Origin: Desulfobacterales bacterium
Lineage (GTDB): Bacteria; Desulfobacterota; Desulfobacteria; Desulfobacterales; UBA5852
Direction: 5' to 3'
DNA length: 64,000 nt
NCBI GenBank assembly: GCA_963674755.2
Contig: CAXXVS010000002.1
Location: 1,728,001 to 1,792,000 of the forward strand
In this document: one piece after another, positions 40,811-64,000 of the stretch
Numbering within the stretch: the stretch's first letter is position 1
Layout of the letters: each line of letters starts with the position of its first letter
Made by a program: the position numbers and the translations under genes
Notes under the pieces: generated by a model
What the model was told of the DNA's origin: nothing
What the model saw: the letters and a program-made list of their open reading frames with translations, nothing else
Database searches by the model: none

Positions 40811-41764
40811 CTAAAGTGAAAAATCAAGACATATTTTCCCAACTGTGCGCTTGGTCTCAATATGCCGGTGTGCATCCGATGCTTGGTTTGCAGGATACTT
40901 TTGTTCGAGGTGCGGTATTATCAAACCGCTTTCGATCCATTCCTTTATTTGTCTCAAATCTTCTGATTGAGAACTAACAAATACAAATCTGCTTGTTTTG
41001 GTGATACCAAGTCGCGCCATAGTTTCCGCCAAAATAGTTGCTCGTTTAGGGACTGTACTCACATAGATTCCACTTTTCCCTAGTTGCCTGACAAATGCAG
41101 ACCTGGTAAATTTGCCAAAAACATCAAATACTGAGTCGAAAGAAAGATCGATATCAGTTGCAAGGCGATCTGCATAACTGTAAGTGCTATCGGCACCAAG
41201 TGACTCGACGAATTCAACATTTTTAGGACCGCAAACTGCGTGTACTTCAGCCCCCATGATTTTGGCAATTTGAACAGCAAAATGCCCAACACCACCGCTG
41301 GAACCATTTATAAGCACTTTATGTCCTGTCTTAACTTTGCAGCAATCTCTGAGGGCCTGCAAGGCTGTTTGAGCCGCCAATGGAACACAAGATGCTTCCT
41401 GAATTGAAATATTAGAAGGAGCGTAAAAAAATTCGGTTTGATTCAGCTTCGCAATCTCGGCATGAACCCCGCCAGCAAAGTTGTTTGTCATTCCAAATAT
41501 CAAATCGCCAACAGAAAAGTCATTAACATCTGAGCCAGTAGCAATGATTTCTCCTGCTATATCCAACCCAGAGGCTCGAGGTAAAGGATCTCTGGCTAAA
41601 GTTTTGCTGAACTTACCTTTCCGAAGAAGCGCGTCTTTAGGGTTGACGCCCCCGGCAATTGCCTTGATCAAAACGCTCCGAGCCGACAGTTCTGGGTCTG
41701 GCCAATTATCCGTCCATTCCAATTCATCGGGAGAGCCGAATCTTCTATAGATAAGTGCCTTCAT
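40811..41764 (-). CDS. NAD(P)-dependent MDR oxidoreductase (lower GC)
   Basis: GVNPKD, GLDIAG, INGSSGGVGHFAVQIAK, GKICL. Confidence 0.9.
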   Translation of the reverse strand: MKALIYRRFGSPDELEWTDNWPDPELSARSVLIKAIAGGVNPKDALLRKGKFSKTLARDPLPRASGLDIAGEIIATGSDVNDFSVGDLIFGMTNNFAGGVHAEIAKLNQTEFFYAPSNISIQEASCVPLAAQTALQALRDCCKVKTGHKVLINGSSGGVGHFAVQIAKIMGAEVHAVCGPKNVEFVESLGADSTYSYADRLATDIDLSFDSVFDVFGKFTRSAFVRQLGKSGIYVSTVPKRATILAETMARLGITKTSRFVFVSSQSEDLRQIKEWIESGLIIPHLEQKYPANQASDAHRHIETKRTVGKICLDFSL

Positions 41765-42270
41765 AAAATGATTTCCTTTTTACTTTTTGGAGCTATGTGA
41801 AAGATCGGAAAGCCTTACCTGATACGTTTAGCAGATAACCCCATTAAAACGAACTTGCTAAAACCTGCGATTACGGATTCATAGCTGTTGATCTGTAATT
41901 TTCAATTGATTAGAAAACTCGCAGATTGAGATAATCCCACGAAAACCGTGCCGCTCAAAACCTTTGATTACGTGCCAGTCACCCAGCGTGCCCAAATCAT
42001 ATAGCGCTGCTGAATATGCTCCGGCAATTCAAAATGCCAGCGCCTGATCCATCATACGGATCGGCCACCTCAAAAGTTCGACGCCCCGATAAATGCAACA
42101 CATAGCAGAAAGAACGATGTTGGCAGTTTTTCAGACTCGTTGGTAGTATATATGTTGCTGAACGAAACGGTGACTGAAACCATCTTTCTTTCGATATTTA
42201 TTACAACCTTGACCATCGCCTGTCTTCATTTCAAATATTGCTGCGAGGCGTGACCTTTTAAGAAGGGCGG

Positions 42271-43935
42271 TTATTTGGTTGACTCTCTCTCCCGCAATTC
42301 CCGTCGTAAAAATTTCCCGATAGCGGTTTTAGGCAATTCATCTATGAATTCAATGCGCTTGGGGACTTTGTAGACCGCAAGCTTTGTACGGCAATATTCG
42401 ATCAATTCGTCCTCGCTTATGGTTTCGCCTTGCTTGCAAACCACAAAAGCCTTTACCGTCTCACCGCGATATTCATCGGGCACGCCAATGGTGCAAGCCT
42501 CCAGAACTATGGGATGTTCAAATAGAATGTCATCGATTTCATTGGGATAAATATTGAATCCACTTGCAATGATCATATCTTTTTTGCGATCGATTAAGGT
42601 TAAAAAGCCGTCTTCGTCGACATAGCCAATATCACCGGTATATAGCCAACCGTCTTTAAGGACGGCAGCCGTTTCTTCGGGCCGGTTGTAATAGCCTTGC
42701 ATGACCTGAGGCCCCTTAAAAGCAACTTCCCCGGGTTCACCTACAGGCATTTCGGTGGTGCCATCCTCAAGGTTCACAATTCGCATGTCCGTGCCCGGCA
42801 GCGGCACGCCGACCGTACCGGTCCTATTTAAGGCCGTCGATGGTGTCGCCGTGGCCATCGGTGAAGTTTCCGTGAGCCCGTAAATGTTGGTGATCCCCTT
42901 GCCCGTCAAGGCCTTCAGATCCTTGATCGTTTCCTTGGCCAGTGGTGCGGCACCTGCCACGAAAAGTTTGATTTTGCTGTGGTCCATCTGCCTGAATGCC
43001 GGCGTGTTAAGCAAGCCGGTATAAATCGTTGGGACGCCGGGAACGAACTCCGGCTTGGCCTTTTTCATGATGTCGATAATTACCTTGGGTTCCGGTCTCG
43101 GAACAAGGACATCGGTAAATCCACAAAAGGCACACATGTTTTGTATGCCCGTAAAGCCCGCCGAATGGAAAAAGGGGAACACCGCGAGTATGCTGCTTCT
43201 ACCTTCTTCTAATTGGGAAAACCACATTTTAGACTGCTGGACATTTACCGACAGGTTGGCGTGGGTCAACATGACACCCTTGCTGACACCGGTCGTTCCT
43301 CCAGTGTATAGCAGCGCTGCAAGACTTTCCCAATGGGCTTTGTCTTCTGTTTCCTCCCCACGTGCATCTTTGATAATATCGACAAATTGATAAAGATGGT
43401 CTCTGGGCGTTATCGCACGGTACATGTCTTTCTTTACCAGAGGAACAAGCAAATTTTTAGGAAACGGCAGGTAGTCGTTGATATGGCAGACAATCACCTC
43501 ACGGATGGATGTTTGCGGCACAACCTTATCCAAACGTGGCAAGAGAAGGTCCAGCGCAATCAGAACAGTTGCCGACGAGTCGTTTAATTGATGGCGTAGT
43601 TCTCTTTCCGTATAAAGAGGATTGGCCGGAGACGTCACCGCGCCAAGGCGCCATATCGCAAAATTAGCGATCACGACTTGCGGGATATTAGGGAGTAGCA
43701 ACGCAACCCTATCACCTGGAACAACACCAAGGCTTTTCAGACCCAGGGCGAATCGCCCGACAAGCCGATTCAGGTCCTGATAGGCTATCCTTTTCCCAAA
43801 AAATTCAAGCGCTGTGGACTTTGAAAAGTCAGCAGCGGTTTGCTTGAGGGCTTGCGATAGGGTTATTTTTTCAAACTCAGGCCAGAAAGCCACACCTTCG
43901 GGGTAATGATCATGCCATGGCCGCTTCGGTTCCAT
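42271..43935 (-). CDS. long-chain-fatty-acid--CoA ligase
   Basis: YTGGTTGVSKG, YGLTE, TGDIG, DRKKDMI, LPKTAIGK. Confidence 0.95.
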   Translation of the reverse strand: MEPKRPWHDHYPEGVAFWPEFEKITLSQALKQTAADFSKSTALEFFGKRIAYQDLNRLVGRFALGLKSLGVVPGDRVALLLPNIPQVVIANFAIWRLGAVTSPANPLYTERELRHQLNDSSATVLIALDLLLPRLDKVVPQTSIREVIVCHINDYLPFPKNLLVPLVKKDMYRAITPRDHLYQFVDIIKDARGEETEDKAHWESLAALLYTGGTTGVSKGVMLTHANLSVNVQQSKMWFSQLEEGRSSILAVFPFFHSAGFTGIQNMCAFCGFTDVLVPRPEPKVIIDIMKKAKPEFVPGVPTIYTGLLNTPAFRQMDHSKIKLFVAGAAPLAKETIKDLKALTGKGITNIYGLTETSPMATATPSTALNRTGTVGVPLPGTDMRIVNLEDGTTEMPVGEPGEVAFKGPQVMQGYYNRPEETAAVLKDGWLYTGDIGYVDEDGFLTLIDRKKDMIIASGFNIYPNEIDDILFEHPIVLEACTIGVPDEYRGETVKAFVVCKQGETISEDELIEYCRTKLAVYKVPKRIEFIDELPKTAIGKFLRRELRERESTK

Positions 43936-44636
43936 AGGTCCCTCCTTCGCTAACGGTTCATAGGAAATAAATAGAATGAATTCGGCCATTGAAAGCACAT
44001 CAAGAAGACGGTAAGTAATTCCGCATCGAAAAAATTAGCCGTTTCTCTGTGGCGAGCTGCTATTTAGTCCATTATTTTTACAATCCCATTCCTCACCTCC
44101 ATTTATTGAAAGTTTGACGGCAATTCATCCATTTTGAAAAATTAATGCAAGTATCCTGGATAAACTGAGAATCAATGAAGGATAGAAAGAGGCGAAATGG
44201 ACTTAGTGTGTGGAGGGCAGATTGGAGGAGTTTCGGTCATCGTCGGAAAAGAGGAGCAAGAACCGAGAGCTACGGTAGGGTTCTGAACACTATCTCCAAA
44301 TAATAAAGGTCATCTATATTTGTCAAGATATTCCTGGAGTTAGGTTGGTAGCTCCAAAAAAGTCTAAGTTGTGATTAACTGATATTAATGAGAAAATCAC
44401 AAGTGGCGATTTGTCGATGATTTTCCAGATTACGTGCCACCATACGTAACACTTAAAAATTCTGTGACACGTCAATACATTGTGGTTCCAATGAGGGCCC
44501 GCAGGGTAGTTGGTAGCTTGGAAAAACGGGTTGGCGGGTTGACCTAAAAGGTCACTTACAATCTGCTGGCACCCGATCTTTTCTGATCCGACCGGAAAGG
44601 AAGAAGAAATATCCTTCCCGGCCGGTGCTTTGCTTT

Positions 44637-51005: not shown

Positions 51006-51218
51006 TCAATGGACGCCCTTGGGAGCAGAATGGAATGACAGACGCCTTTCGATAAGTTCCGCTTCCATTTGCTTCTCCTGTTGCTCATCGCTAAAAAGCG
51101 ATTCCATTTCCCTGCGGGCTGCGGCTTGGCAGGTCGGGCAAACGCCGTGGGTGACCCGGGGGTCTGCCGGATCCCCCGGGTCCATCACCTCTCCGCACCA
51201 GGCACAAACCTGTTTCAT
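51006..51218 (-). CDS. small Cys-rich phage-type protein
   Basis: CAWC..THGVCPTC; start overlaps the upstream stop. Confidence 0.65.
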   Translation of the reverse strand: MKQVCAWCGEVMDPGDPADPRVTHGVCPTCQAAARREMESLFSDEQQEKQMEAELIERRLSFHSAPKGVH

Positions 51219-51739
51219 TTGACTTTCCCGTTGCGCAGCTCGCGCTTTAACCGGTTCAACTCCCAGACGGCCGATTCCATCTTTCCCAGCATGAGGGTCC
51301 GCTTGTCCTCCTGGCTAATCACCTCGCCGCCCTCGGCCTCGGCCAGACAGCGGCAGGGTTCCAGGGATCCGTTAATGTGGTGGATGGCGAACAGCATGGC
51401 CCCGGGGATGGGGTATTCGGCGGGTTTCGACAGGTAGTGGTTCAGCATATGGATGGACAGGCTCTTACCCTCGCCATCCGGATCCCACCCGAAATAGGTG
51501 TTGACCGCCTTGACCAGCTCCAGGCGGCCCTGGCCCCATTGGCGGAGCGCTTTCTTGAGCGCCACCGCCAGTTCGATGCAGGCCTCCTCGTAGCTTTCCA
51601 TGGGCTTGGGCTCGGCGCCCTTTGCGCCTGCGGCCTCCAGGAGCTCGGTCTTGTCCGCGAGATGCGATTCGACCCGCTGTGACCAGTCGAAGTCGAGCTG
51701 GCGCTGGCGGGTGTCTATCTTGCTGGATCTCTTAGACAT
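51215..51739 (-). CDS. phage early regulatory-type hypothetical protein
   Basis: Position after the Cro/Ner-like gene; SIHMLNHYLSKP..IP helix pattern. Confidence 0.65.
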   Translation of the reverse strand: MSKRSSKIDTRQRQLDFDWSQRVESHLADKTELLEAAGAKGAEPKPMESYEEACIELAVALKKALRQWGQGRLELVKAVNTYFGWDPDGEGKSLSIHMLNHYLSKPAEYPIPGAMLFAIHHINGSLEPCRCLAEAEGGEVISQEDKRTLMLGKMESAVWELNRLKRELRNGKVK

Positions 51740-51770
51740 TGACGGCACGTAAGTCCTCTGATAAAGGTTA

Positions 51771-52018
51771 TTAGCTGGCCGCTTTTTGGCCGATTGCCTT
51801 GCTGGTGCTGCGCAGCTTGGGGCCCAGGTAGTAGTCCGGAAACACTTTGGTTTTGGGCTTGCCGATGGCCTGTGCCACCGCGCGCATGATGCGGTCGGAC
51901 ACGCTCAACCGGTGGATCACCCGCGACACGCTCATCTCCGAAACATCCAATTTTCCGGCGATATCCTTCTGGGTGCTCTTTTTTTCCGAAGCGCGGCCTG
52001 GATTTCCTGGGGAGTCAT
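51771..52018 (-). pseudogene. Cro/Ner-like HTH repressor, frameshifted in an A7 run
   Basis: MTPQEIQAALRKK then, after a -1 shift, STQKDIAGKLDVSEMSVSRVIHR..SDRIMRAVAQAIGKP..VFP; 248 nt; missed by the ORF track. Confidence 0.75.
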
Positions 52019-52114
52019 TGCCCTTGCCTTTCTGCTTTAGATCGACTGTGGTCTATTCAAATGTCACGTTTAGATAATGATCTATACACGTATATGTAAC
52101 TAGCAAACGATAAA

Positions 52115-52540
52115 ATGCCACATATGTATAATTTAATCGATCGATTGAAATAGCTCATCTCTGAGTATTCGGGCGGGAAATACACGGTATTCGCTAAAAA
52201 TGCGGGCATACCCCACAGCACTTTGCAGAATTATATGAATGGCAGGACACCCCACGTCGATCATTTATTACGCCTACATGCCATTTATGGGGTTAATATC
52301 AATTGGCTTTTGACCGGAGAGGGCACTGCTTCTTTAAAAGAAGGAGAGGGAGCGGCCGTCGATATGGGCCTCCTGGGCGATACGATAAGCGCCGTGGAGG
52401 ACTGGCTGGAGAGCCACAAGCGCCGCCTGCCGCCCGAGAAGAAAGCCGAGGTAATTCTGTATTTGTACGAGGAGTATCTGGATAAAGAGGAAAAGCCGGA
52501 AACCGCAACAGTGGAGAGGCTGTTGAAGCTCGTGGCGTGA
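52115..52540 (+). pseudogene. CI-like XRE repressor with premature TAG at 52151-52153
   Basis: MPHMYNLIDRLK*LISEYSGGKYTVFAKNAGIPHSTLQNYMNGRTP..GVNINWLLTGEG. Confidence 0.75.
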
Positions 52541-52574
52541 TCGCGCATCGCGCTGCCCTTGCAAAGGGGGCCCC

Positions 52575-53051
52575 ATGAGCAAAGGAGACCGCAGGGAAAG
52601 ACTCGAAAGGATCCTGAAAGAGGCCGAACCCGCTTTAGATCAACCAAGCGGGAATGGTAAGACCGTCGGTATCGGCGATATCGCCGGCCAGGCCAACCAG
52701 ATCGTGGTCGGCAACGATAACATCGTCATCACCAATACCCGCCACCGTACAAAAGCACACCCCTTACGCAGGGCCACCCGCCTGCTATGGATGGGAGTGG
52801 TAGTCCTGTGCGTGCCCCTCATCTCTTGCGTTGAGGCCACCCGCCCGCCTGATCCCAAGATCATCGGCTCCATAACGACAATTACCGCGCAAAACGAACC
52901 CGATCTCCAAACCGCCGATCTGGCCGACACCACCGCGCCGCTTACCGTGATCCACGCTCAGCCGGGTTTCCACTGCTACGCCGGCTGTAGCTTCCTAAAA
53001 CCGACCAGAACAATCGATCCGCTTGCTGGTCAAAGATCCCAGGATATCTGA
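52575..53051 (+). CDS. hypothetical phage-associated membrane protein
   Basis: ORF after the repressor; GQANQIVVGNDN low-complexity stretch and one TM. Confidence 0.55.
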   Translation: MSKGDRRERLERILKEAEPALDQPSGNGKTVGIGDIAGQANQIVVGNDNIVITNTRHRTKAHPLRRATRLLWMGVVVLCVPLISCVEATRPPDPKIIGSITTITAQNEPDLQTADLADTTAPLTVIHAQPGFHCYAGCSFLKPTRTIDPLAGQRSQDI

Positions 53052-53256
53052 CTGACACTTAATACAGGATTACATAAGAAGATTATAAGTGGACTCTACT
53101 TTACATAAAAGATTGTTAGATTGCAGAATTCTTTAGGCTCGGCTGTTTTAATAACGGAAATAAACGAAGAAGAAATCCTGGGACAAAAATTAGTCGCTCT
53201 TTTTGACAAGATAAGATAATATGCCCCATACAAGAGTACTGTAAAATGGGGAAATT

Positions 53257-54513
53257 ATGGCCTTAACATTTCTGGATCTGTTTGCCGGTGCAGGTGGATT
53301 GTCTGAGGGGTTCATTCAGGCGGGTTTTGTACCGGTCGCACATGTGGAGTCTGACCCGGCAGCATGTTTTACCCTGCGCACTAGGATGTCATACCACTGG
53401 CTAAAAACCATTGATCGCCAAGATCAGTACGCCGATTATCTCAATGGGGAAATAAATCGCTCAGAGTTTTATGAGCAGGTTCCCGATCAGATCCCTGGCT
53501 CGGTTATTAATGAAGAAATCAGTGAGGCAACATTACATAAAATTTTCCGTGAAATTGATGAGTTGCTGAATAACAGAAAGCTGGACCTTATTGTCGGGGG
53601 GCCTCCTTGCCAAGCATATTCCATCGTTGGCCGTGCTCGCGACCAAAACCGCATGAAAGGTGATAAAAGAAATTATCTATATATTTATTATGCTGAGTTT
53701 CTGAAACGTTACAGACCATCTTACTTTATTTTTGAAAATGTTTCCGGTCTTATTTCCGCTAAAGATAAAGATGGGAAACTCTATTTCGAATCCATGAGGG
53801 ATCTGTTTTTTAGTTGTGGATATGAAACAGAGTTCAAAATGCTTTCAGCAAAAGATTATGGCGTTTTACAAAACCGAACAAGGATCATTCTCGTAGGCAG
53901 AAGGGGAAAAACAGACGGTTTCTACCCGGATCCCGACAAATGGATTCCAGGTGTGAATGTCGGGGAAATTTTCAATGACCTTCCTGCTATTGATGCAGGC
54001 GGAGGCAGGCCTGGGCCTTGCCGTGTCAAGCCATATAGTGGAAAATGGCAGTATGAAGCACGCGTCAGAAATGACGATTTGCCTGTTTCCTGGCATCAGG
54101 CAAGACCTAATAATGATCGGGACCTTGAGATTTACAGGCTCGCAGTTGTCCTTTGGGACAGGGGAAAGTTAAGGCTGGAATACGACGCCCTCCCTGGCTG
54201 TCTGAAAACTCACCGGAACCGGGAATCGTTTGCTGACAGGTACAAAGTTGTTGCAGCGAACCTGCCGTTTTCACAAACCGTAGTAGCGCATATCGCTAAG
54301 GACGGACACTACTACATTCATCCCGATATCAATCAGAACCGCTCTATAACACCCAGGGAGGCCGCACGGCTTCAGGCCTTTCCGGATGATTACTATTTCG
54401 AGAGCTGCAAACCCGTACCCGGACGTACTCCGGCCTTCCGCCAGATCGGAAATGCAGTTCCTGTTCTCTTATCCCGAAAAATTGCTGAAAAGCTGAAAGA
54501 GGTCTGGTTTTGA
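53257..54513 (+). CDS. DNA (cytosine-5) methyltransferase
   Basis: DLFAGAGG, GGPPCQ, FENV, QNRTR, TPREAARLQAFPD, QIGNAVP. Confidence 0.96.
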   Translation: MALTFLDLFAGAGGLSEGFIQAGFVPVAHVESDPAACFTLRTRMSYHWLKTIDRQDQYADYLNGEINRSEFYEQVPDQIPGSVINEEISEATLHKIFREIDELLNNRKLDLIVGGPPCQAYSIVGRARDQNRMKGDKRNYLYIYYAEFLKRYRPSYFIFENVSGLISAKDKDGKLYFESMRDLFFSCGYETEFKMLSAKDYGVLQNRTRIILVGRRGKTDGFYPDPDKWIPGVNVGEIFNDLPAIDAGGGRPGPCRVKPYSGKWQYEARVRNDDLPVSWHQARPNNDRDLEIYRLAVVLWDRGKLRLEYDALPGCLKTHRNRESFADRYKVVAANLPFSQTVVAHIAKDGHYYIHPDINQNRSITPREAARLQAFPDDYYFESCKPVPGRTPAFRQIGNAVPVLLSRKIAEKLKEVWF

Positions 54514-56678
54514 ACGAAAGCGGCACATATAAAATCCGGCCGGCCGGCCGGCACATTCTCACTATCGGCAGAGATCTGATTCAGGATGGCTACGCTGCGG
54601 TCGTGGAATTGGTAAAAAATGCCTATGATGCCGATTCCGCTGATGTTCTTATCGAGTTCAGTGCAAAACCTGACAGCAGCTATTCAATTGTTGTTTCAGA
54701 TCACGGCCATGGCATGTCACGGGATACTGTAATCAACAAGTGGATGGTACCCTCTACCAGAGATAAACTTGAACGGCGCCAAAGCCCCTCAGAAAGGATA
54801 ATGCAGGGCCGCAAAGGAATTGGACGTTACGCGGCATCCATTCTTGGCAATGATCTGCTCCTCGAAACAGTAACCGCAGAGGGCCAGAAAACAACGGTCT
54901 ATGTCGAGTGGGAGAATTTCGAAGATGCTCAGTTCCTCGATGATGTGGATATTCTCATCGAATCAGCAGAGGTATCGGAACCGAAGGGTACCCGGCTGAC
55001 CATGAGTGGCGGGGCTGATCTTCTTGCAGAATGGGATAATAATCAATTCGACAAACTTCGGTTTGAATTGAAAAAGCTGAAATCACCTGTGAATGAGGCA
55101 TTAAGCAGTGAGGAAGAAAAAGACGGTGATCCCTTCTGTATCAAACTAACGATTAGCGGATTCCCTGATGTAGAAAATGTTGACGAGACCATCGAACCCT
55201 ATCCGATTTTTGCTCTTTTTGATTATCGTATTTCTGGAAAAATAAGCCACCTTGGATTAGGTAAACTCACATTCACAAATCAAAAAACCCGAAATACAAT
55301 TGATGAGGAAATCAATTTCGATGTGGGAAAGCCCACTGGTTGTGGAAATCTGCTGTTTGATATTCGTGTTTATGACCGCGAAAAAGAAGCCATTGAATCT
55401 TTGATCGGGCGTGGTCTTAAGGATGAGTACGGTAAATATGTCGGGAAGCTTCAGGCAAGGCAGCTTCTTAACGAATTTAACGGCATTGGCGTTTACAGGA
55501 ACGGATTCCGGATCCGGCCTCTGGGCGATGCAGACTTCGACTGGCTTAAACTAAACGAGCAGCGGGTACAAAACCCGTCTCTTCGCATAGGCAGTAATCA
55601 GGTAATTGGGTATGTGCAGATACAGTCAGAGGAACAATCCGGGCTGATTGAAAAAAGTGCTCGGGACGGTCTGAAGGAAAACAAAGCTTTCAGCCGACTA
55701 AAGGATATAACCAAATCGGTCATCGCAAGACTCGAGGATCGGCGCTTCGCCTATAGAAAAAAAGCGCGCCTGAGCAGACCTGCTATTAAAGTGGAACGTG
55801 AGTTTGAGCGGTTGTTTTCGTTTGATTACCTGAAAAGGAATATCCGGTCAAATCTTAAAAAAAGCGGTGTTGATAAAAAGACCACCGAAAAAATTATCGA
55901 GATCCTTAACAAGGATGAGGACGAGAAGAACAAAATTGCGGATGAAATTCGTCAGACTGTCGCGATTTATCAAGGCCAGGCGACTCTGGGGAAAATCATT
56001 AATGTGATTTTACATGAAGGCAGACGCCCACTTAACTATTTCAGAAACCAGATACCGAATCTTCACCATTGGTACGAAACTTTCATGAAAACCAAGGATC
56101 CGGAAAAACTCGATAAATTATTACCGATAGCTGATGGCTTGGGCCACAATGCGGATATTTTTGTGAAGTTGTTCAGCAGACTCGATCCCCTCGCAGCCGG
56201 AAAACGGACTGCGCGAAAGCTCCTGAAGCTGAAAAAAAATATTAATGATTCATTGGCTGTTTTTGAAGGTGAAATGAAGGCACGTAAGGTGAAAGCCAAA
56301 GTTACCGGCCCCGACGGTTTTACATTTTTATTTTGGCCCCAGGATATCTATGCAATCTTCACTAATCTCATTGACAACAGTCTATACTGGATGAACGAGA
56401 TAAATAAATCAAAGCATTTGATAACAATAGAAATTGTGACAGACGGGGATACCCTCTCCCATGTTGACTATCGGGACACCGGCCCTGGTATTGAGCCGGC
56501 TTTGATTGAAAGCGAGGTAATATTTGATCCGCAGTTTTCTACGAAACCATCCGGAACCGGACTGGGGCTGGCAATTGCCGGGGAAGCTGCATCAAGAAAT
56601 GGTCTGGAGCTGAAAGCTTTTGAGTCCGAAAAGGGAGCATGGTTCAGGCTGCAACCAATAACAGGGAATGGCGAATGA
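54510..56678 (+). CDS. MORC/GHKL ATPase fused to a C-terminal histidine kinase
   Basis: N-terminal ELVKNAYDAD, DHGHGM, GRKGIGR, YRNGFRI; C-terminal LHEGRRP, NLIDNS, DTGPGI, FSTKPSGTGLGL. Confidence 0.9.
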   Translation: MNESGTYKIRPAGRHILTIGRDLIQDGYAAVVELVKNAYDADSADVLIEFSAKPDSSYSIVVSDHGHGMSRDTVINKWMVPSTRDKLERRQSPSERIMQGRKGIGRYAASILGNDLLLETVTAEGQKTTVYVEWENFEDAQFLDDVDILIESAEVSEPKGTRLTMSGGADLLAEWDNNQFDKLRFELKKLKSPVNEALSSEEEKDGDPFCIKLTISGFPDVENVDETIEPYPIFALFDYRISGKISHLGLGKLTFTNQKTRNTIDEEINFDVGKPTGCGNLLFDIRVYDREKEAIESLIGRGLKDEYGKYVGKLQARQLLNEFNGIGVYRNGFRIRPLGDADFDWLKLNEQRVQNPSLRIGSNQVIGYVQIQSEEQSGLIEKSARDGLKENKAFSRLKDITKSVIARLEDRRFAYRKKARLSRPAIKVEREFERLFSFDYLKRNIRSNLKKSGVDKKTTEKIIEILNKDEDEKNKIADEIRQTVAIYQGQATLGKIINVILHEGRRPLNYFRNQIPNLHHWYETFMKTKDPEKLDKLLPIADGLGHNADIFVKLFSRLDPLAAGKRTARKLLKLKKNINDSLAVFEGEMKARKVKAKVTGPDGFTFLFWPQDIYAIFTNLIDNSLYWMNEINKSKHLITIEIVTDGDTLSHVDYRDTGPGIEPALIESEVIFDPQFSTKPSGTGLGLAIAGEAASRNGLELKAFESEKGAWFRLQPITGNGE

Positions 56679-57751
56679 GTGCTCTGCGGCTGATGATTGT
56701 GGATGATAAAGAGGAAGAGCTGGCGACCTGCCGGGATACCGTTGAGAGGTACAAGGATGAAAGACAGCGTGATGTCCATATGGTTGAATGCAGAAGCGTT
56801 GAAGAGGCCTTCGCACAACTCGATAACTCATTCGATGGTGCAATCATCGATCTGAAACTATCGGATCAGGGAGACGAGGGCAATCAGGTGGTCCGAAAGA
56901 TTGAGGACTTGTGCTTCAGAATCCCGGTTGCGATTCTTACCGGAACACCTGACGCGGCCGATAGGGATTTCACTTATATAGGCGTGTATAAAAAGGGTGA
57001 GCCCGGAACGGGATATGCTGATTTACTGGATAATTTCTGGGACATCTATAATACCGGACTTACCCGCATCATGGGTGGGCGAGGTATCATTGAAAATGCT
57101 TTGAACAGGGTATTTAAACAAAATGTAATCCCACGTAAAGATAAATGGGTTGAATATGGAAGGATCGATCCCCATAGAACTGAAAAGGCACTTATTCGCC
57201 ATACCCTTGGCCACCTGTTACAGCTTATAGATGAAGACGAAGGCCGCTGTTTTCCCGAAGAAGTCTATCTGGCGCCACCGATTACAAATACGGTTAGGAC
57301 CGGTAGTATTGTGAAAAATGAATCTGGCAGGCAGGTTGTTATTCTGAATCCTGCCTGCGATCTTGTTATAAGAGAAAATGGGACATTTAAAACAGATCAT
57401 ATTATGATTGTAATGATTGAAAATGAAGCGGATATCCTTTCTAAAATATTGGAAGGAATAACAAATAAAGGCAAGAAAGAAAAAATGCTAAAGAAAGTTT
57501 ACGGTAATAATTATACCGATTATTACCATTGGTTGCCACAAACGGAATTTTTCGACGGAGGTTTCCTGAATTTCAGGAAAATTTGGACTTTTACCGAGGA
57601 ACGGTACAAAGAAGCCTTCTCGGAACCGAAGATACAGATTTCTCCAGCTTTTATAAAAGATGTTGTTGCAAGATTTTCATCATATTACGCACGTCAGGGA
57701 CAGCCTGATATTGACTGTAGCGCCTTTATTACAAATATGACAACTGGTTGA
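56675..57751 (+). CDS. receiver domain fused to an uncharacterised C-terminal domain
   Basis: MIVDD, IIDLKL, ILTG, YKK receiver motifs; C-terminal LNPACDL..FSSYYARQGQPD. Confidence 0.85.
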   Translation: MSALRLMIVDDKEEELATCRDTVERYKDERQRDVHMVECRSVEEAFAQLDNSFDGAIIDLKLSDQGDEGNQVVRKIEDLCFRIPVAILTGTPDAADRDFTYIGVYKKGEPGTGYADLLDNFWDIYNTGLTRIMGGRGIIENALNRVFKQNVIPRKDKWVEYGRIDPHRTEKALIRHTLGHLLQLIDEDEGRCFPEEVYLAPPITNTVRTGSIVKNESGRQVVILNPACDLVIRENGTFKTDHIMIVMIENEADILSKILEGITNKGKKEKMLKKVYGNNYTDYYHWLPQTEFFDGGFLNFRKIWTFTEERYKEAFSEPKIQISPAFIKDVVARFSSYYARQGQPDIDCSAFITNMTTG

Positions 57752-57766
57752 ATAGATTTTTCGTCA

Positions 57767-58204
57767 ATGGATGTTCACACACCTGAGCAGCGAAGCTTTA
57801 ACATGTCCCGAATCAAAGGGAAGGACACCCGCCCTGAGATTATCATACGCAAATGGCTCTGGACGAAAGGATACAGGTACAGACTCCACAGAATAGATCT
57901 GCCCGGGAAACCGGATATAGTTTTGCCCAAATACCATGCAGTAATTTTTGTTAACGGCTGTTTCTGGCATGGACATGATTGTCGTTATTTTAAATGGCCA
58001 AAGACGAATAAAGGATTTTGGGAAAACAAGATCAATAATACTATCAGTCGAGACCAGAAAAACTATGCCTGCTTAGTCGAGAGAGGATGGAAGTATTTCA
58101 TTGTTTGGGAGTGCCAAATTAAAGCATGGGACTCAAAGGTGTTCACGAATCTGATGCGGTTTCTTGAAAATGAAAAAGGGGGACCGAAAGGATATGTATC
58201 TTAA
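57767..58204 (+). CDS. vsr: very short patch repair endonuclease
   Basis: RSFNMSRIKGKDTRPE, LPGKPDIV, FVNGCFWHGH, VWEC. Confidence 0.96.
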   Translation: MDVHTPEQRSFNMSRIKGKDTRPEIIIRKWLWTKGYRYRLHRIDLPGKPDIVLPKYHAVIFVNGCFWHGHDCRYFKWPKTNKGFWENKINNTISRDQKNYACLVERGWKYFIVWECQIKAWDSKVFTNLMRFLENEKGGPKGYVS

Positions 58205-58243
58205 ATGGCATTCTTTGGCGAATAATCCTGATGCGTATAGCAA

Positions 58244-58450
58244 ATGAAAAGAATAACAAAACTGCTGACAGATCCTGACTCTGACGAATATCCATTCCCT
58301 CACAACATAAGCGAACAGCTCAGATCACCCGATAAAGACCTCGAAGGCATCGTCAGAAATGCCAAGTATTTAGTTATCCAAAAAGGCGACGCCGCCTAGA
58401 TCACCTGTTATCTCGTAACCGACACCGCCGAAATCATCCAGTTTCCCCCC
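58244..58450 (+). pseudogene. decayed small gene, most complete copy of a locally repeated remnant
   Basis: Open from ATG 58244 to TAG 58397, where the copy at 58852-58876 has TGG; segments recur at 58852, 59145 and 60088. Confidence 0.6.
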
Positions 58451-58512
58451 AGCTGTCAAGTCGCTCCCGTGCTGCCAAGAATTGTTAATGTTTCAAATGA
58501 AGGAGAACTAAA

Positions 58513-58839
58513 ATGCCCAAATTTAACGATGGCAAACCGTATCATGGGTCTGAGAAGATTGCTCGTGGCCAGCTAAAGGGCGCCACCGATAGCTCTGACT
58601 ATTTTTATTTCTTTTGTCCGAACTGCCCTGATAACGAGATCATGAGAATTTTAGAATATGGAGAACATGCAAAAGAGTCGACAAATGAGTATAATGCCCT
58701 TTGTAAAAGCAAGGCCAAATACGGATTCACCTTAGTTTTCAAAATCCATTGTGAAAAATGCGGTTTCTCCGACTTTGTTAAAATAGCAAACACAGGCTGG
58801 CAAGGTGGTAAACATTCTGAAACAATGAAGAGGGCATAA
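58513..58839 (+). CDS. hypothetical zinc-binding protein
   Basis: AGGAG upstream; CPNC and CEKC pairs. Confidence 0.75.
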   Translation: MPKFNDGKPYHGSEKIARGQLKGATDSSDYFYFFCPNCPDNEIMRILEYGEHAKESTNEYNALCKSKAKYGFTLVFKIHCEKCGFSDFVKIANTGWQGGKHSETMKRA

Positions 58840-58911
58840 GCCTTGAACCGCAAAGGAGACGCCGCCTGGATCACCTAATAGTTCGAATAGGGAAAGGTCA
58901 AATTTAGCATC

Positions 58912-59115
58912 GTGAAAATCAAAGTTGCCCAGGCAAGCGATAGAATCGTTATCCAACTGAAAAACGGCCGCGAATTCGAAATCGCCTTTAATGCGGCAGA
59001 TGAACCCGGCGAGCCCAGCCTATGCCGGATATCCAGGGATGGCCGCGAAATCACGAGACATGAATCAAAGCAGGCAGGAAAACTGGAGTTCTGGGAGACC
59101 ACGCTTCCAGATTAA
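58912..59115 (+). CDS. small hypothetical protein
   Basis: 67 aa ORF between repeat remnants. Confidence 0.45.
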   Translation: MKIKVAQASDRIVIQLKNGREFEIAFNAADEPGEPSLCRISRDGREITRHESKQAGKLEFWETTLPD

Positions 59116-59263
59116 AAACGGGATTGACCTATTACGCAGAAACTGACACCGCCGAAATCATCCTGCTCCCCACATACGAATTGAAAAAGTCGTCCAAGCC
59201 TTCCAATTGGATCTTTTTTAAAATAAACCAGCGCATTAAGACAATAATGAGCAGGAGTTAAAA

Positions 59264-60103
59264 ATGGATAAAGAATCAACAAATTCCCTACCAACATTAG
59301 CTGATGATATTTGGAATGATACCGGTCTAGATATCGAGGCGCTGTTAAATTTAATTCCTTTTGCTGGTGGCTTCATGGCTACTTATTTTGGAGAAATCCG
59401 GTCTAATAGAATGCTTGAAAGAATGAAAGAATACTTTAAATACTTTTCCCATCGAATTGACCTTATTGATGAATCGAAGCTTGATAAAGAATATTTGAAT
59501 AGTGAGGAATTTTCAGAATTGTTTTTACAAGGTGCTGAGCAAGCTTCTCGAAGTACCACCAAAAGACGAATTTATCGTTTTGCAAATATTTTGTTAAACA
59601 ACGCTCTGAGAGATGCTACAGCAAGAGATAGAACGCAAAGCGTGATGGGGTTTGTAGATAGGGTAAGTGACATTGACGTTTTTGTGCTGCTTTCTTTTGG
59701 CCACCCAAGATTTCAGTCCCACTTCGCCAAAGATAAAGATGAATGCATTGAACAAGTCGAAAGCTTTGCAAAATACCTGCATATCTCACCACCCATAGAA
59801 AATGATATACTTGAGTCGATTATCTATATGGATAACCTTGGGATTATGTGGGTGACGCAACATGAGGTAAAAGAAGGAGAGGAAGACTCTGTATTTAGTA
59901 CAAATTTTTCCGCTTTTCGATCTCCTCTTGGGAATGTTTTTGCCGCTGTTATAGCGCCACCAGATTTTTATTTAGAGTTAGCAATCGATCATGATGGCTT
60001 GAAATGGCCGGATGATTTTGTGTGCAAAGATATGCTTGATGGACAAGATATTTTTGAAAGAGAACCTAAAGCCACCGACGAAAAACATCGAAGACATCGT
60101 TAG
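59264..60103 (+). CDS. hypothetical protein (low GC)
   Basis: AGGAG upstream; 279 aa ORF in AT-rich DNA. Confidence 0.75.
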   Translation: MDKESTNSLPTLADDIWNDTGLDIEALLNLIPFAGGFMATYFGEIRSNRMLERMKEYFKYFSHRIDLIDESKLDKEYLNSEEFSELFLQGAEQASRSTTKRRIYRFANILLNNALRDATARDRTQSVMGFVDRVSDIDVFVLLSFGHPRFQSHFAKDKDECIEQVESFAKYLHISPPIENDILESIIYMDNLGIMWVTQHEVKEGEEDSVFSTNFSAFRSPLGNVFAAVIAPPDFYLELAIDHDGLKWPDDFVCKDMLDGQDIFEREPKATDEKHRRHR

Positions 60104-60598
60104 AAATGCTAAGTACTCAGGCACCAATTACCTCGAAACCAACTCCGGCGAGAGCCTCCAGTTCCCCGAACACGAATTAGAAAAGTCGGCCAACCCATCC
60201 AGCAGCCGCTTTTCAAATAGATTCCGCTGCCCCCTAAAAACCCCAAAAATACCGCAAAAATCAGGATTATTTATAATTCAGGGGTATTATCTGACCACTT
60301 GCAATCATTGAATTTAACCTTATCCTAAATTTTACGATCCACACAAGCCGGTTCCCTCCACATTAGCCGCAATGGCGTTTCATGTAATGTCGCAAAAAAA
60401 ATTAGAAGGCGAACTAAATCTTTATTTGTGAAATGTCGGGAGGGCCACCCCTTAATTTCTTAATATCTAAAGAATTGTCCTCTCTCCTTAGTTAGGGACC
60501 ACCCCGATCCTAGCTCATTTGTTAGGCAAATAAATTATCCTCACCGCCCTCGAAAATGCATCTTTGAACCATCTTAACCTGAGCCAAAGGAGCACCTC

Positions 60599-61219
60599 AT
60601 GATCAGACTAACTTCAACACCACCAATCGCAGATATTGTCACTCCGTTAGACAAACAAAAACCTCCAATTGAAGTGATCTTATCGCTACTCGCAGATCGC
60701 TTTCCGGAAGCGCCTCAGCCAGAATATAATTGGTCTCACGGGTATTATGTTAGGTGTAACACATATTCAGACGACGGCAACCTTATTGCAGTTTATTTCC
60801 CTGCATCAATTGTTTACGTTTTGGACGTTGGTTATGAAAACCTCGTTGTATTTAGTGATCCAATACAGCCGAATATTACAGCGGATCCAACCTTTCCACA
60901 TTGGGAAAAAGGCCAATTCTATTGTGCGAGAAGGGAAGATGCAGTAGAAATACTGTACCCATTCCTTCCACGCGACCTCTTCATTGGTACCGAGAAAAAG
61001 ATGACGAAAGACGAAATTTCGGCGAAGCTATCACCGCTTAATGTCACCATAGAAAGTGCGATTTCCGACAACAGCTTTCTTGCAAAATCGCCGGCGTATC
61101 AGGAAGACTCCTTTGCATCGAGAATTCGCGCAATGTCAGACATTAAGTACGTTGAAAGGAATAGCACAGTGCGAATAATTGACCTCACTCCAGGGTGGCT
61201 GATTGATCGGATATTCTGA
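60599..61219 (+). CDS. hypothetical protein; C-terminus resembles a subtilase propeptide/I9-like domain
   Basis: AGGAG upstream; ..IRAMSDIKYVERNSTVRI pattern. Confidence 0.65.
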   Translation: MIRLTSTPPIADIVTPLDKQKPPIEVILSLLADRFPEAPQPEYNWSHGYYVRCNTYSDDGNLIAVYFPASIVYVLDVGYENLVVFSDPIQPNITADPTFPHWEKGQFYCARREDAVEILYPFLPRDLFIGTEKKMTKDEISAKLSPLNVTIESAISDNSFLAKSPAYQEDSFASRIRAMSDIKYVERNSTVRIIDLTPGWLIDRIF

Positions 61220-61553
61220 TTATCAATGATTGAAACTGAGATGGGGAGACAGTACTCAAGCTACCTAATGAGCATCTTACGTACTGGTCAAAAAGAATCT
61301 GGCATAAAGCCGTAATCAATACTGTATAAGAGAATTAGGAGGTTAATATGCCTAAAGTAACCTTACACGCAACCAACTTACTGAATCCTAATCACATGGA
61401 ATGGATTATTGATGGTCGTCTGTTGGTTTCTGAATATAGTGCAGGTCGGGTGAAAGATATTACGTAAGCGTTCAGCGAACCCCATCTTCTCAAGCCCGTA
61501 AAGCTATGCCATGATCGCCCGCGTCTGATAACCATTTACAGACGGAGGCGATC

Positions 61554-61898
61554 ATGAACAAGGCATCACGGCAAGCCGCCCTTCGAGAAAAGCGCCGGTT
61601 TTGGAAAGCGCACATCGAGGACTGGAAGGCCAGTGGCCTGAAACAGTCCCGGTATTGCCGGCAGCACGATTTGAAGCTGCACCAGTTCGTATACTGGCGG
61701 AAAAAATACGACCCTGCCAGCAAGACAGCGCCAATATCACTTGTGCGGGTGGACTTGCCCGCCCAGACTTTCCATCGCCCGCTCCCATCGCCTGCAAGGC
61801 TGCGTTTGATCGTCGGTGGCGATCGACGCATCGAGGTGGAGCGGGACTTCGATCCGGTGGCCCTCAAGCAGCTGATCCAGACCCTGGAGCGGCTGTGA
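61554..61898 (+). CDS. tnpA: IS66 accessory protein TnpA
   Basis: WKASGLKQSRYCRQH..YWRKK. Confidence 0.9.
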   Translation: MNKASRQAALREKRRFWKAHIEDWKASGLKQSRYCRQHDLKLHQFVYWRKKYDPASKTAPISLVRVDLPAQTFHRPLPSPARLRLIVGGDRRIEVERDFDPVALKQLIQTLERL

Positions 61899-62248
61899 TG
61901 TTTTTGCCCTCTGGAACCCGGATCTATCTGGCGGTGGGCAGCACCGACATGCGAAAGGCGATCAACGGGCTTTCGATTCTGGTGCAAGACGAACTGGCGC
62001 TGGATCCGCTCTCGGGTCACCTGTTTGCCTTTTGCAACCGCAAGCGCAACATGGTCAAGATTCTGTACTGGGACCGCAACGGGTTTTGCCTGTGGCACAA
62101 GCGCTTGGAGAAGCATCATTTCACCTGGCCCGAGAGTCGGGATCAGGTGCTCCAGCTGGATACCCGGCAGCTCAATTGGCTTCTGGAGGGGCTGGATATC
62201 GGGCGTTTGAGCGGCCATGAAAATCTTCTCTATGAAACGATGATTTAG
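61898..62248 (+). CDS. tnpB: IS66 accessory protein TnpB
   Basis: TDMRKAINGL..KILYWDRNGFCLWHKRLE. Confidence 0.93.
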   Translation: MFLPSGTRIYLAVGSTDMRKAINGLSILVQDELALDPLSGHLFAFCNRKRNMVKILYWDRNGFCLWHKRLEKHHFTWPESRDQVLQLDTRQLNWLLEGLDIGRLSGHENLLYETMI

Positions 62249-62317
62249 AAGTATTTATTTACCGGAAGAACCTGAAAACACTTGTCAAATTCATGCACTT
62301 GTCGTAAACAAGAAGCA

Positions 62318-63898
62318 ATGAATCTGAAAGTAAACAACCTGCCTGAAGATCCTGCCGTCCTCAAACAGATCGTTGCCGAGCTGATTGGTGAATACAAACG
62401 CTCCCAGGAAAAAATCCAGCATCTGGAAGAATACGTTCGCCTTCTGCAAAAGGAGATTTTCGGACGAAAGTCCGAAAAGCATTCCCTGCCGGATCGCAAC
62501 CAACTCCTACTGTTTGACCAATTGGTCGAGGAAGCCAGCCAAGCCGATGATGGGGTGCCGCGGGAAATCCCCGTTGCCGGCCACATCCGCAAAAAACGGG
62601 GCCGCAAGCCGCTGCCGGCCGATCTGCCCCGGGTGGAGATCATCCACGACCTGGCGGAATCCGAGAAGCGGTGTCCCTGTGGCGGCGAGCTCAAGCGCAT
62701 CGGCGAGGAGGCCAGCGAAAAACTCGATTATGTTCCGGCCATCCTTCGGGTCGAGCGCCACATCCGCTACAAGTACGCCTGTCCGGCGTGCGAAGGGGTG
62801 GAGGACGACGGTCCCACCGTAAAGATCGCTGCGGCGCCGCCGCAATTGATTGAAAAGAGCATCGCCACCGGCGGCCTGGTGGCTCACATCGTTTGTTCCA
62901 AGTTCGAAGACGCCCTGCCGCTGTACCGGCAGGAGAAAATTTTTGCCCGCCTGGGGGTTGACCTGCCGCGGTCTACGATGTGCACCTGGTTGGTCAAAGT
63001 GGCCGAAAAGCATCGGCGGCTAACAGCGCTTTTGCTCAGTGAAATCCGCGGCGGACCAGTGGTCAACGCCGACGAGACCACGGTCCAGGTTCTCCAGGAG
63101 CCGGAGCGAGCCGACACGAGCAAGTCTTACATGTGGCTGTTCCGCGGTGGCGACCCGCAGCATCCGGCGCTTGTGTTCCAGTACCATCCCACCCGGTCCG
63201 GGAAGGTGCCGCTGGCGGTGTTGTCCGGCTACCGGGGCTATGTTCAGTGTGACGGCTACAACGGCTACGATGCCTTGGGCCGGGAAAAGGATGTCACGCT
63301 TGTGGGCTGCTGGGCCCATGCGCGCCGAAAGTTCGACAAGGTCATCAAGGCCCGGGGCGGCCAGAAGAAAGAGGGAACGGCGGAAAAGGCCATTGACTTC
63401 ATCGGGAAGCTTTACCAGGTCGAGAAGAAGGTCCGTCAACTCGAGCTGGACGCCGATGGCATCCGGCAACTGCGCCGGCAGGAATCAAAACCCGTGCTCG
63501 ACGAGTTCAAAGATTGGCTGGAGGCCAAGTTGCCGCTAACCCCGCCCAAGGGGCTTCTGGGAGCCGCCATCCGCTACACGCTGAACAACTGGGAACGTCT
63601 GATCCGCTATTTGGAGGACGGTCGGCTGCGCCCGGACAACAATCTTGCCGAAAATGCCATCCGCCCGTTCGTTGTCGGCCGGAAAAACTGGCTGTTCGCT
63701 GGCCATCCCAAGGGCGCCGAGGCCGCCGCCTTCTATTACAGCCTAATTGAGACCGCCAAAGCCAATGGGCTCAGGCCCTATGATTACCTCCGGTATCTGT
63801 TCGACAAACTCCCGCTGGCGGAAACCAAAGACGATTACAGGAAACTCCTGCCGCAAAATCTGAATCAGCAAATGATCACCCCCGCACGCCCAGCATAG
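62318..63898 (+). CDS. tnpC: IS66 DDE transposase TnpC
   Basis: FGRKSEK, LPLYRQ, ADET, CDGY, CWAHARRKF, DNNLAENAIR. Confidence 0.96.
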   Translation: MNLKVNNLPEDPAVLKQIVAELIGEYKRSQEKIQHLEEYVRLLQKEIFGRKSEKHSLPDRNQLLLFDQLVEEASQADDGVPREIPVAGHIRKKRGRKPLPADLPRVEIIHDLAESEKRCPCGGELKRIGEEASEKLDYVPAILRVERHIRYKYACPACEGVEDDGPTVKIAAAPPQLIEKSIATGGLVAHIVCSKFEDALPLYRQEKIFARLGVDLPRSTMCTWLVKVAEKHRRLTALLLSEIRGGPVVNADETTVQVLQEPERADTSKSYMWLFRGGDPQHPALVFQYHPTRSGKVPLAVLSGYRGYVQCDGYNGYDALGREKDVTLVGCWAHARRKFDKVIKARGGQKKEGTAEKAIDFIGKLYQVEKKVRQLELDADGIRQLRRQESKPVLDEFKDWLEAKLPLTPPKGLLGAAIRYTLNNWERLIRYLEDGRLRPDNNLAENAIRPFVVGRKNWLFAGHPKGAEAAAFYYSLIETAKANGLRPYDYLRYLFDKLPLAETKDDYRKLLPQNLNQQMITPARPA

Positions 63899-64000
63899 AT
63901 AGTGGGGTTCGCTGAACGCTTACGATATTACCAATGGTGGAGATATGCTTAATGTAGCTCCATTTGCGACAGGATTGGAAGGGCCATCTAGCATTTTACC

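Follow-up and report, generated by a model that had tools for sequence, protein, structure and literature searches.

Near the right-hand end of a 64,000-nucleotide window of a Desulfobacterales genome (contig CAXXVS010000002.1 of assembly GCA_963674755.2; all positions refer to this window unless a locus is named) lies a cassette of four plus-strand genes. They encode a Dcm-type C5-cytosine DNA methyltransferase (dcm; 53257..54513, 418 amino acids, GPPCQ motif at residues 115-119, PF00145 at E 9e-57, TIGR00675), a paraMORC GHKL ATPase fused to a histidine-kinase transmitter (54510..56678, 722 amino acids from a TTG start, PF13589 and PF02518), a receiver-effector protein (56675..57751, 358 amino acids from ATG) and an accessory Vsr very-short-patch repair endonuclease (57767..58204, 145 amino acids, PF03852 at E 4e-35, TIGR00632). 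The first three genes are coupled by stop/start overlaps, TTGA at 54510-54513 between dcm and the kinase gene and ATGA at 56675-56678 between the kinase and receiver genes. An upstream alternative ATG would extend the receiver to 370 amino acids, and vsr starts 15 nucleotides past the receiver gene. The guanine-plus-cytosine (GC) content of the cassette is 0.446, compared with 0.594 for window positions 1-50000. These four reading frames, their overlaps and their low GC content agree with an initial annotation of the region, which had proposed a two-component anti-phage system in which a MORC ATPase senses unmethylated or foreign DNA. Promoter and terminator scans gave results at chance level, Rfam had no match in 40000-64000, and no tRNA genes were found in the window.

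The kinase protein contains Pfam domains PF13589 (residues 30-141) and PF02518 (residues 611-714), and its residues 479-714, including the H-box, align with the transmitters of FixL and ZraS. The H-box, LHEGRRP, begins at residue 501 and places the predicted phospho-donor at His502 (codon 56013..56015); the N, G1, F and G2 boxes follow at 619, 656, 672 and 682. Across 70 full-length kinases, residues E33, N37, D64, H502, E503, N619, N623 and D656 are invariant (70/70), as are the GHKL motif glycines G66, G68, G100, G103 and G105 (70/70). The protein is predicted to be soluble, with a top 19-residue hydropathy of 1.04 and no membrane helix. The C-terminal kinase of the initial annotation is fully borne out, and the N-terminal domain requires a different name. 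Its GHKL motifs, with the catalytic Glu and Asn, are intact, as expected for an ATPase of this group. Strict MORC proteins are marked by an S5 motif, GhXhhpXXRhl (PMC2292703). In the region after residues 30-141, presumed to be the S5 region, residues 325-335 have F where the motif calls for Arg, with R following one residue further on. Because the exact motif of the MORC family is off by one residue, we assign the ATPase to paraMORC rather than to MORC proper. The N-terminal part also matches NF050001 (NCBIfam), and PADLOC restriction-endonuclease (REase) models match the kinase only within its GHKL domain. Near-identical kinases occur in loci L001-L005, which span three phyla, indicating recent transfer. 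In one related locus the kinase (L080:7318-10008) has an additional N-terminal domain of ~170 amino acids.

No family match was obtained for the receiver protein in Pfam, PADLOC or NCBIfam. Its full-length AlphaFold2 model (predicted local distance difference test, pLDDT, 84.8) shows a REC domain joined through three linker helices to a C-terminal domain rich in beta-strands. Fold searches with the whole protein detected the REC domain only, and the output domain surfaced when it was folded by itself. The REC domain (residues 4-126; 56684..57052) contains D10/D11, D59, T89 and K107, with the predicted phospho-acceptor D59 encoded at 56849-56851, and its model matched 3kto in VIA with Z 15.7 (root-mean-square deviation, rmsd, 2.1; 117 residues aligned). 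D11 and D59 are invariant in 72/72 full-length receivers, T89 is present in 71/72 and 71/72 have K or R at position 107. The acidic pair, phospho-acceptor, Thr and Lys that the initial annotation had listed are accordingly all in place, and together with the kinase residues they make up a methylase-linked His-Asp relay that is conserved. No helix-turn-helix is visible in the receiver model.

The output domain (residues ~205-342; 57287..57700) is predicted to adopt the MazF/PemK/CcdB fold. Residues 188-358, modelled alone from 141 sequences, reached pLDDT 96.5 and a predicted template-modelling score (pTM) of 0.86. E. coli MazF led the Foldseek matches in the PDB (E 3.3e-4), where the 30 rows displayed consisted of 29 MazF/PemK proteins and CptN. 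Foldseek also listed PemK-like viral proteins among top rows in a further search. In an exhaustive VIA search of 48,161 chains, the top 15 were all MazF, PemK, Kid, CcdB, CptN, ToxN or AbiQ (Z 10.9-5.0), led by MazF 8zws (Z 10.9, rmsd 2.5, 102 aligned), with CcdB at Z 9.7 and Kid at Z 9.6; the first chain outside the MazF/CcdB superfamily followed at Z 4.5. The match spans almost the entire MazF chain. We consider the predicted MazF/PemK/CcdB/ToxN-superfamily fold well supported by these models, and RNase chemistry is not supported in the same way. The motifs of the domain, all encoded within 57287..57700, are P226-x-C228-D229, H285, R301, R333 and a terminal R340-Q-G-Q-P. Among 140 output domains, P226 and C228 are each kept in 140, D229 in 139, H285 in 131, R333 in 136 and R340 in 138. 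The invariant Cys, Asp, His and Arg residues lead us to suspect a site for catalysis or binding. The domain could be an RNase whose active site is non-canonical, a tentative suggestion with the odds somewhat against it, or it could bind a cellular target as CcdB does. CcdB poisons cells through the same fold without RNase activity, and type III toxins rely on other residues. A homodimer prediction for the domain scored 0.10 against a mark of 0.42 and was not used as evidence.

The domain is not confined to this architecture. Receiver searches found 1,451 relatives, and a profile search with the output domain found 1,101 clusters at 50% identity; searches of PDB sequences with it returned nothing and those of a protein atlas only unnamed clusters. 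Within the host phylum the output domain occurs in 11/401 genomes. Besides the source genome, these comprise one with a close cassette, four with distant REC fusions and five with stand-alone copies. All four distant fusions follow a similar kinase, two of them with Dcm and one adjoining the DISARM gene drmC. At 5 loci the stand-alone domain closes a module of three genes (hhalign 97.8%), and since these copies lack a receiver, the domain is a mobile output unit. The modules (L137:5950-7505; L139:5881-7627; L140:6775-8634; L141:5672-7905; L142:2910-5087) consist of a TIGR04255 gene (L137) or an unnamed gene for 210-250 amino acids, a small gene and the lone MazF-fold domain. They had no notable PADLOC match, a literature search found no paper on TIGR04255, and we regard it as a separate toxin-module candidate. 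The receiver itself had no match among 50,697 phage records, occurred at 2 loci in IMG/VR and was found on 44 plasmid records, 40 of them conjugative. A distant receiver is carried by 39 Campylobacter plasmid records; in the one opened (CP120305.1, L143:4026-8237), a kinase precedes the receiver and a convergent dcm adjoins. In another protein (P0177), a methylase is joined directly to the receiver linker and output domain, as either a deletion product or a natural fusion.

Gene neighbourhoods were compared across 80 related loci, the best 80 of 100 confirmed GTDB matches, which represent at least 12 named phyla. Counts of kinase, methylase and Vsr partners were made by tblastn with evaluable loci as denominators; the nuclease survey and the counts of restriction-modification (R-M) genes rest on a pruned set of open reading frames (ORFs), which can miss genes. 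A kinase gene lies directly upstream of the receiver gene in 75/78 loci, a full cognate methylase gene is found upstream in 48/69, and vsr is directly downstream in 30/74. Judged from these sequences, the kinase-receiver pair is the conserved core, and the methylase and Vsr are frequent and dispensable. No nuclease recurs as a fixed partner among 113 neighbouring-ORF representatives. Genes of an HNH family occur in 5/80 loci; at four, the gene lies just before that of the kinase or receiver, with the methylase missing or truncated. An HNH gene is also present in one locus of the Response_reg_2 type discussed below. No nuclease or other effector adjoins the cassette in the window or at loci such as L001, L007 and L024. 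The lack of a restriction nuclease, already apparent from the initial annotation, is thus a property of the family as well as of this copy, and because no such gene is conserved across the loci, the cassette does not look like the remnant of a larger operon. Type I R-M clusters are present in 21/80 loci and type III-like clusters in 16/80. The cassette sits between hsdM/hsdS and hsdR in 8/80 loci, 6 of which are from Poribacteria and hence not independent. In Poribacteria loci L017, L037, L044, L058 and L068, the kinase-receiver pair, without a C5 methylase, follows a TIR/SEFIR-domain gene between hsdM/hsdS and hsdR.

The distribution of the methylase bears directly on what the cassette might sense. 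By tblastn and an ORF tally, the 69 evaluable loci comprise, besides the 48 with a full cognate methylase, 4 with a partial one, 5 with another or displaced C5 methylase (among them L014 and L053, where a different one lies on the opposite strand) and 12 with none. Vsr follows the methylase, being present at 30/46 loci with a methylase versus 1/14 flagged as lacking it, and that one has a different Dcm. When 15 genomes were searched for the cognate methylase, it was found in the cassette in 3 and as a fragment in 1, and no cognate copy was detected with the query used in 11; 3 of these 11 had no C5 methylase match whatsoever. Locus L067, whose kinase is split, lies outside this search and outside the residue and substitution-rate tables, and the L058 receiver contains a stop. 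The alignable methylase-less loci keep every relay and output residue. Nearest-neighbour pairs of methylase-less kinases have ratios of nonsynonymous to synonymous substitution (dN/dS) of ~0.09-0.19, and these kinases, mostly from one host phylum, include two four-member, fully methylase-less subclades with 100% local support (FastTree). If unmethylated cognate sites were the trigger, loss of the methylase would be lethal, yet methylase-less copies persist under purifying selection; a trigger of this kind, as the initial annotation had envisaged for the MORC domain, therefore cannot be general. For the methylase, a modulating role or that of one potential input is more likely than that of an obligatory antidote.

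The sequence specificity of the methylase can be approached only indirectly. Its best PADLOC model is DrmMII (PDLC02649, 542 bits), whose target we take to be CCWGG. The motif has 0 occurrences in PMC9142583. The observed/expected ratio of CCWGG is 0.60 in 42 cassettes versus 0.85 in flanking ORFs, a weak signal because the loci are mutually related, and other motifs are depleted in the cassettes too (CTTAAG, 0.41 versus 1.00; CGWCG, 0.68 versus 0.95). The source genome shows no genome-wide depletion of CCWGG. CCWGG is thus possibly the target. Kinase and methylase distances correlate across 44 loci (Spearman 0.77).

Several described systems resemble parts of this cassette. The closest are the HEF_HK (PF19191)/Response_reg_2 (PF19192) two-component-like elements (Bellieny-Rabelo, Pretorius, Moleleki 2021, PMC8011034), in which a soluble kinase with HATPase_c_3, H-box and HATPase_c is accompanied by an adjacent receiver, an upstream C5 methylase and often a downstream Vsr. 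As in those elements, the acidic pocket of the adjacent receiver is intact here and a C5 methylase and Vsr are linked. We compared the receivers through two Response_reg_2 proteins fetched from phylum genomes, one of them together with its 65 homologues, 64/65 of which carry PF19192. The receiver C-terminal domain is homologous to that of Response_reg_2 proteins (hhalign 90%, E 1.7e-6; 20 column shuffles gave <=0.55%), whose C-termini carry matching P/Q-x-C-D and terminal R-x-G motifs, and from this homology we infer that they share the MazF-type fold. The two groups also differ. No cassette protein matches PF19191 or PF19192 at E<=0.1, and PF19192 has no match in the source genome versus 2/201 phylum genomes. 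The H-box reads HEG here and HEF in HEF_HK, and the kinase and receiver have 722 and 358 amino acids, compared with ~985 and ~530-550 in the two fetched HEF_HK examples. By sequence, the cassette is best placed as a sister clade of the HEF_HK/Response_reg_2 elements. The main text of PMC8011034 gives no output fold or experiment and does not mention MazF or PemK. Open-access literature searches, bioRxiv supplements excluded, found no paper linking a MazF fold to the receivers of such systems. The class itself is already known; what appears to be new is that its effector is assigned a toxin fold.

A functional precedent is provided by Ambrosia (AbrR-A-B-C-D) of Pseudomonas aeruginosa, which blocks phages and requires the receiver Asp (10.1101/2025.09.30.679545). 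Ambrosia also clusters a methylase, a HATPase/histidine kinase and a receiver; its genes encode an N6-adenine methylase, an XRE regulator, a receiver with REC and winged helix-turn-helix domains and an essential HNH nuclease. The present cassette instead has a C5 methylase, Vsr, a REC protein with a MazF-fold domain and no HNH gene, as compared from the published description of Ambrosia. A repressor frame near the cassette is broken and not conserved with it, and the cassette has no counterpart of the XRE regulator. Methylation gave phage no protection from Ambrosia (10.1101/2025.09.30.679545), and the dispensability of the methylase here fits that result.

Older descriptions cover the N-terminal half of the kinase. 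The paraMORC/MORC R-M operons of Iyer, Abhiman, Aravind 2008 (PMC2292703) combine an N-terminal GHKL ATPase with Dcm and Vsr, as here, and 2008 also saw the first mention we know of a histidine-kinase domain at the C-terminus of a GHKL protein (PMC2441816; R.EcoUTORF4938P/R.HgiDII). The present cassette lacks the superfamily 2 (SF2) helicase or fused nuclease of those systems, and a receiver partner is not mentioned in the available portions of either paper. The initial annotation had known of no mechanistic work on such systems, but the GHKL-kinase fusion in R-M loci and the kinase-receiver-methylase-Vsr layout were thus already on record in PMC2441816 and PMC8011034, respectively. The GHKL-Shedu nuclease (PMC12137116) has a different architecture.

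Residues 205-342 have a fold in common with MazF/PemK/Kid, CcdB and ToxN/AbiQ/CptN (Z 5.0-10.9), as judged from a predicted model. They differ from MazF-type toxins in being fused behind a receiver, in having a helical insertion and a conserved C-terminal RQGQP tail, and in the lack of an antitoxin gene, as the gene before the receiver is the kinase rather than a cognate antitoxin in 75/78 loci. PrrC, an ABC-ATPase/HEPN anticodon nuclease, is a guard encoded between hsdS and hsdR in the type I operon EcoprrI, a slot that many accessory genes occupy. A possible guard effector holds the same position in 8/80 of our loci; the sequences are unrelated, and the window cassette, unlike PrrC, has no adjoining type I system. 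Two further candidates were rejected. For class II DISARM, which comprises drmA, drmB, drmC and drmE with DrmMII, the methylase matches DrmMII and no further Drm match was found among 10 proteins scanned; for type II R-M, there is no cognate restriction endonuclease gene, the PADLOC REase matches being to the GHKL domain only.

Taken together, these observations suggest that the cassette is a phosphorelay-gated anti-phage guard whose toxin-fold output would arrest the infected cell, a form of abortive infection; we give this reading a probability of about 0.52. In the proposed mechanism, a disturbance affecting DNA or a methylation/restriction system would be detected by the paraMORC ATPase, whereupon phosphate would move from His502 of the kinase fused to it onto Asp59 in the receiver. 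The phosphorylated receiver would then switch on the MazF/CcdB-fold output, probably via dimerisation, a step we propose because proteins of the MazF family work in dimeric form and receivers often dimerise upon phosphorylation. The active output would arrest the infected cell, with the methylase marking DNA and Vsr repairing the T:G mismatches that arise from methylation. A defence role is plausible by analogy, given the neighbourhoods and the Ambrosia relative. The more specific proposal, that the output is a toxin of the MazF/CcdB superfamily gated by His-Asp phosphorylation without an antitoxin, forming a new Cys/Asp/His/Arg branch and the built-in effector of the HEF_HK/Response_reg_2-like class, falls a little short of even odds.

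Several results weigh against a toxin output. Identity to the matched structures is 5-16%, and a shared fold is no proof of function. Pfam PemK (PF02452) matched 0/73 output domains at E<=1, and hhalign of the output domain with 17 MazF sequences gave 0.4%. MazF catalysis requires Arg and Thr (PMC10893535), and the corresponding positions, placed by a manual motif register rather than by residue-level superposition, are not conserved here (219 is mostly D/E/G, and 249 is E/D). H285 and D229 are substituted in some distant relatives. Finally, Ambrosia protected its host without visible toxicity and requires its HNH nuclease (10.1101/2025.09.30.679545).

Alternatively, the relay could be regulatory: the MazF-fold domain would bind nucleic acid or protein without being toxic, and would thereby adjust the expression or activity of the methylase and of nearby R-M systems. 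Both the HEF_HK and Ambrosia papers favour a role of this kind (PMC8011034; 10.1101/2025.09.30.679545), which would accord with the non-conservation of canonical MazF catalytic residues, the frequency of adjoining R-M genes and the tolerance of methylase loss. We consider it unlikely, given that the receiver model has no helix-turn-helix, that in the window and at loci such as L001, L007 and L024 there is no adjoining nuclease or effector to regulate, and that the invariant C, D, H and R resemble an active or binding site. Cryptic restriction, in which the kinase/ATPase would find unmethylated sites, the output domain or the unassigned middle of the kinase would cut DNA and the methylase would protect, appears improbable. 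It draws on the R-M-like gene order, the depletion of CCWGG in cassettes, the kinase-methylase distance correlation, the NF050001 match of the kinase N-terminus and the GHKL modules that head genuine type II enzymes such as HgiDII (PMC2441816). It conflicts with the 12/69 loci that have no nearby C5 methylase, with the 11/15 genomes that have no cognate copy by the query used, with the low dN/dS and two subclades of methylase-less kinases, and with the Ambrosia methylation result (10.1101/2025.09.30.679545).

The fold also bears on what the output could do to its host. CcdB and Kid are plasmid addiction toxins, and MazF-fold proteins are not known as DNases, a further point against cryptic restriction. 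A kinase-controlled toxin that is fatal to any cell from which the cassette is lost, and that thereby stabilises islands or plasmids while hardly affecting phage, would suit the toxin fold, the patchy mobile distribution (any relative in 11/401 phylum genomes) and the largely conjugative plasmid records. An ATPase sensor and a relay would be overly elaborate for addiction alone, and the R-M/DISARM placement and the Ambrosia precedent suggest defence; we rate pure addiction as marginally less likely than cryptic restriction, and the two roles can coexist. That the cassette is a decayed remnant which lost its nuclease is barely credible. The broken repressor and cro-like frames next to it and the scattered HNH genes (5/80 loci and one Response_reg_2 locus) would be compatible with decay, but the four genes are intact with full motifs and the nuclease-free layout recurs across phyla, and the neighbourhood tally largely refutes this reading.

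The cassette belongs to an island of ~14 kb that, from flank spacing and the GC profile, occupies 51006..64000 in the window and ends near 65418, ~1.4 kb past it; in a same-genus genome (G004) the flanks are ~1.15 kb apart. The kinase was not found in 12 other genomes of the genus, several of them incomplete. Outside the cassette, a phage-type repressor frame (52124..52540, plus strand; PHROG 4/8 matches) is interrupted by an in-frame TAG at 52151-52153, and a divergent cro-like gene (~51760-52019, minus strand) is frameshifted; either decay or an assembly error could account for this. Both frames belong to the left end of the island, which by its PHROG matches resembles a phage immunity region. 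Neither an integrase nor a virion gene was found among the island ORFs listed or scanned. The source genome (G000) contains two sister islands (C1:364776-376312 and C3:1888008-1891989) whose low-GC cargo differs. All three islands have the left end (51006-53051) and a right-end sequence (64780-64912 in window numbering, just past the window) in common, and the repressor and a 158-amino-acid gene form the left end in at least two of them. Common ends with different cargo identify a cargo hotspot rather than an intact prophage. The hotspot suggested by the initial annotation therefore stands, and its prophage link is weak, given the broken repressor, the absence of the receiver from all 50,697 phage records and its 2 IMG/VR loci.

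Other features of the region were recorded alongside. Orphan cargo ORFs (58513-58839, 59264-60103, 60599-61219) lie among degenerate short repeats (58334-58447, 58852-58876, 59127-59205, 60081-60377) that recur in the sister islands and may have been left behind by recombination within a cassette array. An element at 61463-63924 with 22-bp terminal inverted repeats is presumably IS66-like, a family name taken from its gene layout. One sister island adjoins an integrative element at a tmRNA gene (G000 C3:1892524-1907843) with integrase-like and DnaE-like genes, named from their translations. A second low-GC stretch (41001-44300; 0.44-0.49) lies upstream of CO-dehydrogenase-like genes.

The cassette is real, intact and widespread, a variant of a known and partly validated class. 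Methylase-kinase-receiver cassettes are widespread and one member blocks phages, but how the receiver acts had been an open question; the toxin-fold prediction, extended to Response_reg_2 proteins by homology, makes a mechanism testable. If correct, it would explain why R-M-like cassettes frequently lack a restriction nuclease, and it would connect two-component signalling with a fold of toxin-antitoxin systems where no antitoxin takes part. It would also mean that prokaryotic MORC-like ATPases can serve as immune sensors rather than as nuclease motors.

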